A stretch of 40,464 nucleotides of DNA, from positions 1 through 40,464 of IMG/VR virus record IMGVR_UViG_643348545_000008, one strand, 5' to 3'. The position numbers and the translations under genes are program-made. This document shows, piece after piece, positions 23,523-24,742 of the stretch; the stretch's first letter is position 1; every line of letters begins with the position of its first letter. Under the pieces are notes generated by a model. That model was not told the DNA's origin and ran no database searches. It saw only the letters and a list, made by a program, of their open reading frames with translations. Source of the stretch: a virus. Lineage: Duplodnaviria; Heunggongvirae; Uroviricota; Caudoviricetes.

Positions 23523-24742
23523 ATGAACGTGAACTGTCCATTATCCGTGCACTGGGCGAAGAATTCGCCGCGGTGATAACGGATTTACAGCGTACATTTG
23601 AAGAAAAGATGGCTGCGCAGGCGCAGCAGTCTGAAGAGAAACTGGCTTCCCTGTCCGCGGTACTACAGAAGCATGTGACGCTGGATGAGGTTCGCTCTGT
23701 TCTGCAGGCGATGGTGGATGATGCGGTGGGGGCCATTCCGGTACCGCGTGATGGTCGTGACTATGATCCCGATGTTCTGCAGAAGGCGGTGAATGATGCG
23801 GTCGCAAATATTCCGCTACCGGCGGACGGAAAAAGTATCACCCCGGATGATGTGCGTCCGATGCTTGAACAGATGGTGAAGGAGGCGGTAAGCCATATTC
23901 CTGTTCCGCGCGACGGTCGTGACTATGATCCCGATGTACTGCAGAAGGCGGTGAATGATGCGGTCGCAAATATTCCGCTACCGGCGGACGGAAAAAGTAT
24001 CACCCCGGATGATGTGCGTCCGATGCTTGAACAGATGGTGAAGGAGGCGGTAAGCCATATTCCTGTTCCGCGCGACGGTCGTGACTATGATCCCGATGTA
24101 CTGCAGAAGGCGGTGAATGATGCGGTCGCAAATATTCCACAGCCGGCGGACGGTAAAAGTCTCACCCCGGATGATGTGCGTCCGATGCTTGAACAGATGG
24201 TGAAGGAGGCGGTAAGCCATATTCCTGTTCCGCGCGACGGTCGTGACTACGATCCGGATGTTCTGCAGAAGGCGGTTCTGGATGCGGTGAGTGCCCTGCC
24301 GGCTCCGCAGGACGGGCGTGATGCCACGGCACTGGAAATACTCCCTGCCATTGACGATCAAAAATCCTTTCCCCGGGGCACGTATGCCACACACCAGGGC
24401 GGACTCTGGCGGGCGTATGAAAAAACGCACGGGATGCGGGGATGGGAATGCCTGGTTGACGGGGTGGCGGATATTGACGTCAGCATGACCGGCGAACGGT
24501 CGTTCACTGTGGTGGTCCGGCAGAGCAGTGGCCAGCGTACGGAAAAAACATTTTCCCTGCCGGTGATGCTCTACCGCGGTGTGTTCAGAGCCGGTGAAAC
24601 CTACCACCCCGGCGATACGGTGACGTGGGGGGGCTCGCTGTGGCACTGCAACAGTATGACCGAAGATAAACCCGGAGAAGCTCATTCATCAGCCTGGACC
24701 CTGGCTGCAAAACGTGGGCGGGATGCAGGAGGCGGAAAATGA
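23519..24742 (+). CDS. Structural protein with tandem 54-aa repeats (possible head decoration or fibre protein, 407 aa)
   Basis: ATGA overlap with the portal stop. Coiled-coil N-terminus. 3.5 copies of an IPVPRDGRDYDPDVLQKAVNDAVANIPLPADGKSITPDDVRPMLEQMVKEAVSH unit. Confidence 0.55.
   Translation: MNERELSIIRALGEEFAAVITDLQRTFEEKMAAQAQQSEEKLASLSAVLQKHVTLDEVRSVLQAMVDDAVGAIPVPRDGRDYDPDVLQKAVNDAVANIPLPADGKSITPDDVRPMLEQMVKEAVSHIPVPRDGRDYDPDVLQKAVNDAVANIPLPADGKSITPDDVRPMLEQMVKEAVSHIPVPRDGRDYDPDVLQKAVNDAVANIPQPADGKSLTPDDVRPMLEQMVKEAVSHIPVPRDGRDYDPDVLQKAVLDAVSALPAPQDGRDATALEILPAIDDQKSFPRGTYATHQGGLWRAYEKTHGMRGWECLVDGVADIDVSMTGERSFTVVVRQSSGQRTEKTFSLPVMLYRGVFRAGETYHPGDTVTWGGSLWHCNSMTEDKPGEAHSSAWTLAAKRGRDAGGGK
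23735..24300 (+). repeat. Near-identical 162-bp direct tandem repeats (about 3.5 copies), in-frame within the CDS
   Basis: Unit starts at 23735, 23897, 24059 and 24221. Copies 2 and 3 differ at only a few positions. Confidence 0.85.

Follow-up and report, generated by a model that had tools for sequence, protein, structure and literature searches.

Does a tandem repeat inside a phage gene set the length of the encoded protein, and does that length change between related phages? The question is raised by the window analysed here, the whole 40,464 nucleotides of IMG/VR virus record IMGVR_UViG_643348545_000008 (Caudoviricetes), in which the gene for an HK97-type portal protein is followed directly by a 407-aa open reading frame (ORF) containing near-identical 162-bp units. 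In-frame tandem repeats that vary the length of a phage structural protein are well known; the family carrying this one is uncharacterised and systematically mis-annotated. We conclude that the units are likely to be length-setting stalk modules of a conserved, portal-adjacent phage morphogenetic protein, and that their number varies between related prophages, probably through recombination or slippage.

The 162-bp repeat and its copy number

Tandem Repeats Finder reports an array at 23735-24276 with a period of 162, 3.3 copies, 96% matches, 0% indels and a score of 993, as well as a 75-nt sub-period (5.1 copies) in the same array, which corresponds to the half-repeat. The array is composed of three full copies and a partial fourth, 97% identical (23735-24276/24295). 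The unit starts given in the original prediction, 23735, 23897, 24059 and 24221, were recovered, and the few bases by which it distinguished copies 2 and 3 amount to five mismatches (Table 1). It had also described an in-frame 54-aa unit with an internal IPxPxDG half-repeat, and this description is confirmed: the array is in frame with the ORF, since (23735-23519) mod 3 = 0, and the unit, IPVPRDGRDYDPDVLQKAVNDAVAN + IPLPADGKSITPDDVRPMLEQMVKEAVSH, consists of two half-units, IPVPRDG... (25 aa) and IPLPADG... (29 aa). The fourth copy matches over about 56 nt with three mismatches and is divergent beyond; its peptide retains IPVPRDGRDYDPDVLQKAV..., the first half-unit, together with LPAPQDG as a degenerate motif. 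A repeat of such length and identity cannot have arisen by chance. The differences between copies 1 and 2 are synonymous only, indicating purifying selection on the peptide.

Comparison of homologous E. coli prophages demonstrates that the copy number is variable rather than invariant. The array is present in 0.5, 1.5, 2.5, 3.5, 4.5, 5.5 or 6.5 copies, always in 54-aa steps, and these states correspond, among distinct full-length proteins at IMG/VR loci, to lengths of 245 aa (3 variants), 299 aa (6), 353 aa (13), 405/407 aa (29), 461 aa (9), 515 aa (1) and 569 aa (2), respectively. In the best 120 protein matches, the anchor-to-anchor distance is 214 aa (n=22), 268 aa (n=89) or 322 aa (n=3), i.e. 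2.5, 3.5 or 4.5 copies; the states with 0.5, 2.5 and 4.5 copies are also found in complete genomes. Counts of 2.5, 3.5, 4.5 and 6.5 stand on an identical unique flank of 820 nt (400 nt at the junction and the last 420 nt), and three prophages of a single IMG genome (L007, L024 and L048) carry 2.5, 2.5 and 5.5 copies. Since copy number differs where the flanks are identical, it changes much faster than point substitution proceeds. The proposal that such repeats are prone to copy-number change is thus borne out both among homologous prophages and on identical flanks.

Unequal recombination or slippage between units that are 97% identical would predict the whole 162-bp steps that are seen, and the near-identical DNA of the units implies that the change was probably very recent. 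The same pattern extends across the family: other genera have independent, near-identical adjacent units of their own, with periods of 51, 53, 54, 58 and 60 aa, and the number of modules sets the length of the standalone family members, from 239 to 862 aa.

The repeat count could also be an artefact of short-read assembly, through collapse or expansion of the array, and the array (542 bp) does exceed the typical short-read length. Single-nucleotide polymorphisms distinguish the copies, however, and therefore the array is not a trivially duplicated assembly block. In addition, 3.5 copies is the modal allele across many independent complete genomes and phage records, and the other counts fall in discrete 162-bp steps. 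We regard an artefact as very improbable. As a fast-evolving length marker, the 162-bp repeat could tell apart near-identical prophages; it will also confound short-read assembly.

One gene or two at the portal junction

E. coli SW070917 (NZ_CM129862.1) contains the window sequence at 100% identity, and in that genome the Prokaryotic Genome Annotation Pipeline (PGAP) labels 22158-24742 as a single pseudogene, 'phage portal protein, frameshifted'. RefSeq applies the same label to the state with five G residues (G5) in SW070917, CUPS TF 6/1_01, 09-02E, strain 315 and 86-24. If this label were correct, the repeat ORF would be the dead 3' part of a frameshifted portal gene and the repeat drifting junk, and the occurrence of a single 859-aa ORF in phage 2851 and O157 F8797 speaks in its favour. 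The difference lies in the length of one G-run. G5, as in the window, gives separate portal and downstream ORFs, whereas six residues (G6), as in phage 2851 and O157 F8797, give an in-frame fusion, and the G-run is the only structural difference in the alignment of the window with 2851. Across the G6 state the fused ORF has 859-861 aa, and it is found in complete O157 genomes (WP_000267295). Viral contigs in IMG/VR comprise 56 with G5 and 41 with G6. Both states are present in four haplotype groups with identical 400-nt flanks, where sequencing error is possible in some assemblies, and deep clades with G5 only are present as well.

Comparison across genera is difficult to reconcile with a pseudogene. 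An earlier scan of viral-contig proteins had yielded near-identical E. coli loci only; a scan of one genome per species gave 31 loci from about 20 genera, including Kosakonia, Kluyvera, Phytobacter, Atlantibacter, Citrobacter, Buttiauxella, Pantoea, Erwinia, Serratia, Morganella, Proteus, Pseudomonas, Marinobacter, Delftia, Variovorax, Acidovorax and Pseudoduganella. All 31 loci have terL, protease/capsid, portal (443-477 aa), a homologue of the repeat ORF (289-556 aa) and a connector, and the order portal, repeat-ORF homologue, connector is shared by Enterobacterales, Pseudomonas, Burkholderiales, Marinobacter and a Rhizobium phage. The homologue is a separate ORF that overlaps the portal stop by 4-16 nt; two separate overlapping ORFs are found at 29 of the 31 loci, and the only fusion is that of Ca. 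Pantoea communis.

The portal terminus itself is also informative. In other Enterobacterales it reads ...AMLRGLLTK and stop, followed by ATGA and MNERELS..., and in the window ...AMFRGILKK and stop, ATGA and MNERELSIIR; the consensus in the G5 frame is RG[ILF][LI]xK before the stop. Because the C-terminal peptide of the portal is conserved in the G5 frame, the split state is ancestral and the G6 fusion derived. The split pair is present in phages recovered as particles, BP-4795 and FSL SP-016, as well as in Rhizobium phage RHph_X2_26; moreover, almost every G5 locus retains an intact downstream ORF, and the differences between repeat copies are mostly synonymous. On the basis of the synteny and the conserved portal C-terminal peptide we reject the PGAP reading, which is exceedingly improbable. 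Judged from the sequences compared, the split two-gene state is the ancestral, intact arrangement and no pseudogene.

Portal fusions have arisen in independent lineages, namely the G6 state of E. coli and Ca. Pantoea communis (L199 2704-6435) / P0224. The Pantoea-type fusion (1,237-1,243 aa) contains a Pro/Asp/Thr-rich linker of about 70 aa, about 25 modules of LPxPEPLPDI plus helix, and the same C-terminal domain, and is the longest portal-attached stalk seen. A programmed -1 frameshift at the G-run or at an A-run, of the lambda G/GT type, was considered as the link between the two ORFs and rejected as a conserved mechanism, since frame relations and junction sequences vary between genera. 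Most Enterobacterales have the downstream ORF in frame 2, but Erwinia, Pantoea, Pseudomonas, Morganella and Marinobacter have it in frame 1, and no slippery heptamer shared at the portal/downstream junction was found across the compared genera. This variation in frame and the lack of a shared slippery site make a conserved programmed frameshift unlikely; the junction is read more economically as one of simple translational coupling.

These results bear on how prophages are scored. The RefSeq label suggests that the prophages are unable to make heads, whereas the comparative data indicate that the split form is normal, so that the scoring of prophage 'defectiveness' would change. A 2009 survey, for example, scored the portals of several Sakai prophages as defective (D), with the reason unstated (PMC2669165). 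The G5/G6 split-or-fused polymorphism is thus a useful correction to 'frameshifted portal' calls.

The names given to the gene product are misleading as well. In the Pfam search, PF04860 is absent from ORF 23519-24742, the portal domain lying wholly inside 22158-23522, and the long standalone homologues likewise have no portal domain. The repeat ORF matches positions 455-859 of the phrog_2271 profile (E 4.2e-268) as well as phrog_1289 (E 1.7e-196), and the standalone homologues match the same two profiles, i.e. PHROG 1289 and the C-terminal half of PHROG 2271; the 'portal protein' name of these has been transferred from fused forms only. Other databases use 'gp6-like head-tail connector' or 'carbohydrate binding domain' inconsistently. 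We rejected the former, because none of the 386 collected proteins has a connector domain or a connector fusion. NCBIfam gave no family match for the repeat protein. The original prediction of a structural gene next to the portal therefore holds for the window and most genera, but public annotation counts the gene as part of the portal, fused in 2851 and as a pseudogene in RefSeq.

An exhaustive HMMER search (E <= 1e-3) places 5,677 clusters at 50% identity in the family, mostly standalone proteins of 240-700 aa with few portal fusions. The gene is carried by 1245 of 5426 complete E. coli genomes (~23%), often in several prophages, including long-tailed phages encoding Shiga toxin (Stx) types Stx1 and Stx2c. 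The family is thus large, yet it lacks an assigned function and a solved structure, and its members are variously named portal, gp6-like connector or carbohydrate-binding domain; literature searches for function, proteomics or structure specific to the repeat protein found nothing.

Architecture and placement of the protein

All family members have in common an N-terminal helix, a variable number of modules and a C-terminal domain of about 145 aa. The modules, about 25-29 aa long, combine [ILV]PxPxDG(K/R)(D/S)..P with an amphipathic helix, or LPxPEPLPDI with a helix in some lineages, and the stalk that they compose is strongly acidic. The C-terminal domain has a mean identity of 65% between clusters and about 65% from E. 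coli to Burkholderiales. A single-chain AlphaFold2 model built from a 38-sequence alignment has a mean predicted local distance difference test score (pLDDT) of 68.9. In this model, the repeat region consists of alternating 13- and 17-residue helices with 12-residue linkers between them, so that the unit is predicted as a two-helix module (pLDDT 55-70); aa 263-311 are of low confidence, and aa 316-397 form a confident beta domain (pLDDT ~90).

In the predicted structure, the final ~50 aa (about 24566-24718) are folded like a CBM5/12 chitin-binding module. PF02839 (CBM_5_12) matches aa 357-379 with 21.0 bits, below the gathering cut-off of 26.2; homologues reach 18.8-22.8 bits, and some database members have a precomputed PF02839 match. 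The precomputed matches also include Pfam PF28083. Sequence inspection locates a second YxxG...GGLW-like motif within the low-confidence stretch. When PDB sequences were searched, first with the one sequence and then with a profile, a weak CBM5/12 motif was the only match, and no solved relative emerged.

We propose that each 162-bp unit would encode two amphipathic helices of 13 and 17 residues, each following a 12-residue IPxPxDG(K/R)D..P linker, and that these modules would make up the central stalk of a morphogenetic protein encoded between the portal and the gp6-like connector. The number of modules would set the stalk length, and the strongly conserved C-terminal beta domain, with its tandem CBM5/12-like motifs, would be located at the stalk end. 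Given that neighbouring units share ~97% identity across 162 bp, whole units could be gained or lost by replication slippage or by unequal homologous recombination, either within one prophage or between the several paralogous prophages of one genome. Since the frame is preserved, the stalk would change in 54-aa steps with constant terminal domains; presumably a freely variable length is tolerated between conserved end domains. The covalent portal fusion of phage 2851 would result from slippage in the G-run that adds one G.

The repeat ORF shares ATGA overlaps with the portal stop (23519-23522) and the connector start (24739-24742), and the protein is co-transcribed and translationally coupled with portal and connector. 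Its long N-terminal helix (aa 1-72) is a candidate docking element for the long, acidic, disordered and presumably flexible C-terminal tail of the portal, because independent lineages have fused the two proteins at exactly this junction. Docking of this kind would tether the protein physically at the portal vertex. The recurrent fusion to the portal C-terminus likewise suggests a protein tethered to the portal, perhaps on the inner side of the head.

Several points weigh against the account of a length-setting, portal-adjacent stalk. The count of 3.5 in the window is that of the assembled sequence, and some of the copy-number alleles could be non-functional, as many of the compared prophages may be defective. 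The geometry of the stalk is uncertain at a pLDDT of 55-70 and a predicted template modelling score of 0.29, which is compatible with a monomeric solenoid or an oligomeric segmented coiled coil. Finally, the literature contains no experimental localisation (including on virions), stoichiometry or phenotype that we could find for any family member.

As to where such a stalk would reside, a surface-exposed head decoration or fibre, as suggested in the original prediction, would be plausible in architecture on the basis of the model. In its specific form, this would be an external neck or head fibre, oligomeric and probably trimeric, anchored at the portal/connector vertex and pointing outward, with a knob that binds a glycan and a repeat number that sets the reach. 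The architecture is fibre-like, and most structural neighbours in BFVD are phage fibre proteins of the 'collagen triple helix repeat' type, together with a JS10 tail-fibre-like protein and CBM5/12 proteins; the knob has a CBM5/12 fold. A long coiled coil and two runs of five GXY triplets are present in the distant homologue from Rhizobium phage RHph_X2_26, which also matches the tail-fibre family phrog_5073 (E 1.3e-8). A neck complex is suggested by the translational coupling of the gene to those of portal and connector, and exposed stalks typically show the kind of concerted evolution seen in this one. However, circulating Stx2c phages carry natural in-frame fusions to the portal C-terminus, which, to our knowledge, faces the capsid interior in every portal structure solved. 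In addition, the C-terminal domain is far more conserved, from E. coli to Burkholderiales, than host-specific receptor binders, and the window protein has a single GRD/GKS triplet per linker and no Pfam Collagen match. We therefore treat the external fibre as a tentative possibility.

An internal location deserves comparable, equally guarded consideration. In this case the protein would associate with the portal crown in the capsid lumen, where it would serve DNA organisation or ejection, or would be ejected to bind peptidoglycan through its CBM-like domain; in position it would correspond to SPP1 gp7/MuF or to the portal barrel of P22. The independent portal C-terminal fusions through a long disordered linker, the location of the gene directly 3' of the portal, and an N-terminal helix of about 70 residues that could extend the crown are consistent with this, and the extreme conservation of the C-terminal domain would fit a universal ligand (peptidoglycan glycan, DNA or capsid). 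On the other hand, the strongly acidic stalk and the likeness of the knob to the tips of external fibres speak against it, a covalently fused copy would not be ejectable unless cleaved, and the protein has no homology to MuF/gp7 (no Pfam match to Phage_Mu_F in the window protein).

The stalk might instead act as a ruler or scaffold that sets the length of an elongated (prolate) head, as the protein is portal-linked and variable in length, and relatives that reportedly carry or resemble this head module have elongated heads. These include H-19B (PMC8065619) and phiSTEC799-Stx2c (PMC12029490), which may carry the repeat gene, and PhiESI (bioRxiv 10.64898/2026.03.17.712176), which is tied to the gene through its relative FSL SP-016. 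All three are reported to have long tails in addition to prolate heads. Copy number does not track genome size, however: the Stx2c records H29 and H26 (50,243 and 50,414 bp) carry 2.5 and 3.5 copies, respectively, and phage 2851, with 3.5 copies, has a genome close in size (57.2 kb) to that of BP-4795, with 4.5 copies (57.9 kb). The defined genome ends reported for PhiESI also leave little room for a change in head size. A ruler is accordingly disfavoured and seems most unlikely.

We give roughly equal weight to lumenal and external placements, each with reservation, and smaller weights to an assembly-only role and to a head-length ruler. Speculatively, temperate siphophages of the HK97 type, many of them prolate-headed, could have in this protein a portal-vertex component that had escaped recognition, i.e. 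a portal-tethered, fibre-like protein with a CBM5/12-like knob for a universal ligand, a stalk made hypervariable by repeat recombination and a G5/G6 toggle between non-covalent and covalent attachment. The 'defective, frameshifted portals' scored in prophages of enterohaemorrhagic E. coli (EHEC) would then be intact.

Genomic surroundings and related systems

In the window, the portal and repeat ORF are preceded by terS (17724), terL (18284), a protease-capsid fusion and a 73-aa ORF, and the connector is followed by a head closure protein, a gp10-like protein, gp17, an Ig-tagged major tail protein, chaperones and the tape measure. The features are collected in Table 1.

Table 1. Positions in the window of the repeat-bearing gene, its parts and other features
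Feature	Position	Strand	Description
G5 homopolymer	23503-23507	+	Inside Shine-Dalgarno-like AGGGGG, 12 nt upstream of downstream ATG
Portal gene, HK97-type	22158-23522	+	454 aa; PF04860 E 4.5e-81; phrog_2271 positions 1-451
Repeat-bearing portal-adjacent gene	23519-24742	+	407 aa; PHROG 1289 family
N-terminal region, aa 1-72	23519-23734	+	Long helix in AlphaFold2 model (3-52 and 55-71), pLDDT 83-94 for aa 1-50
Repeat copy 1	23735-23896	+	54 aa
Repeat copy 2	23897-24058	+	Peptide identical to copy 1; 5 synonymous differences
Repeat copy 3	24059-24220	+	5 nt and 2 aa differences from copy 2
Partial repeat copy 4	24221-24295	+	First half-unit, 25 aa
Conserved C-terminal domain, aa 260-407	24296-24742	+	Two YxxG..(T/V)..GG(L)W motifs
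gp6-like head-tail connector (Ad1)	24739-25065	+	PF05135, phrog_40
Q antiterminator	6283-7104		Late-regulatory region 6283-12160, which also has a DNA methylase
TolA C-terminal-like ORF	9218-9646		Late-regulatory region
662-aa protein	10172-12160		DUF1737, SASA esterase and DUF6645
Repeat in small terminase ORF	18167-18220		27-bp x 2 tandem repeat, 85% match
Protease-capsid fusion	20009-21946		645 aa; prohead protease (Peptidase_S78) and major capsid protein (Phage_capsid) joined by a coiled-coil linker
Major tail protein	26276-26992		C-terminal Ig-like domain (Ig_2, I-set)
Porin gene	31508-32671		387 aa; Gram-negative porin (Porin_1, E 1.8e-139)
Tail fibre gene	38358-39866		N-terminal prophage tail-fibre domain, collagen triple-helix repeats, Phage_fiber_2 repeat
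18-bp tandem arrays	38779-38819, 39504-39544		Two arrays in collagen-like GXY region of tail fibre (Tandem Repeats Finder)

Protease and capsid are separate ORFs in the Burkholderiales relatives L203, L204, L206 and L207. Hoc-like decoration PHROGs match the Ig-like domain of the major tail protein. The porin gene is situated amid the tail genes, after the tape-measure and minor-tail genes, and looks like a moron. The layout of the late-regulatory region is typical of the late regions of Stx phages, and no Shiga-toxin ORF was seen among the window ORFs scanned.

Among the closest known systems is the portal of Stx2c phage 2851 (CAQ82041, 859 aa; WP_000267295), which represents the same gene pair at 93-95% nucleotide identity, with the same 3.5 copies and C-terminal domain, but as a single fused ORF (G6) instead of the two ORFs of the window. 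In Stx1 phage BP-4795, ORF59 (CAD88860.1, 461 aa) is a separate gene after a 454-aa portal, with an overlapping stop and 4.5 copies. Salmonella phage FSL SP-016 has the same arrangement in SP016_00155 (347 aa), with a shorter stalk. Both proteins, which follow portals of 451-454 aa and are annotated as 'hypothetical protein', have the same N- and C-terminal domains as the window protein.

More distant likenesses are those of architecture or position. T4 fibritin (Wac) has a segmented helical stalk of short coiled-coil pieces separated by Gly/Pro loops, an N-terminal neck anchor and a C-terminal folding domain. The resemblance is architectural only, without a sequence or fold match: fibritin ends in a foldon and the window protein in a CBM5/12-like knob, and a trimer is hypothetical for the latter. 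SPP1 gp7/Mu gpF is a portal-associated protein encoded directly 3' of the portal and sometimes fused to it; here the likeness is positional only, since the fold and domain layout of the window protein are entirely different. Collagen-like fibres with CBM5/12-type knobs (BFVD A0A6J7XHF2, A0A6J5MVL4 and JS10 C4MZS1) share a small C-terminal beta knob on a repetitive stalk, but the stalk of the window protein is alpha-helical and its gene lies at the portal, not in the tail-fibre region. With respect to the variation itself, a parallel is provided by tandem domain-repeat hotspots in phage structural proteins, such as the BACON repeats of crAssphage, which are likewise in frame and differ in copy number from one related phage to another (PMC6949934). 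They differ in domain type, and the units of the window are near-identical at the DNA level.

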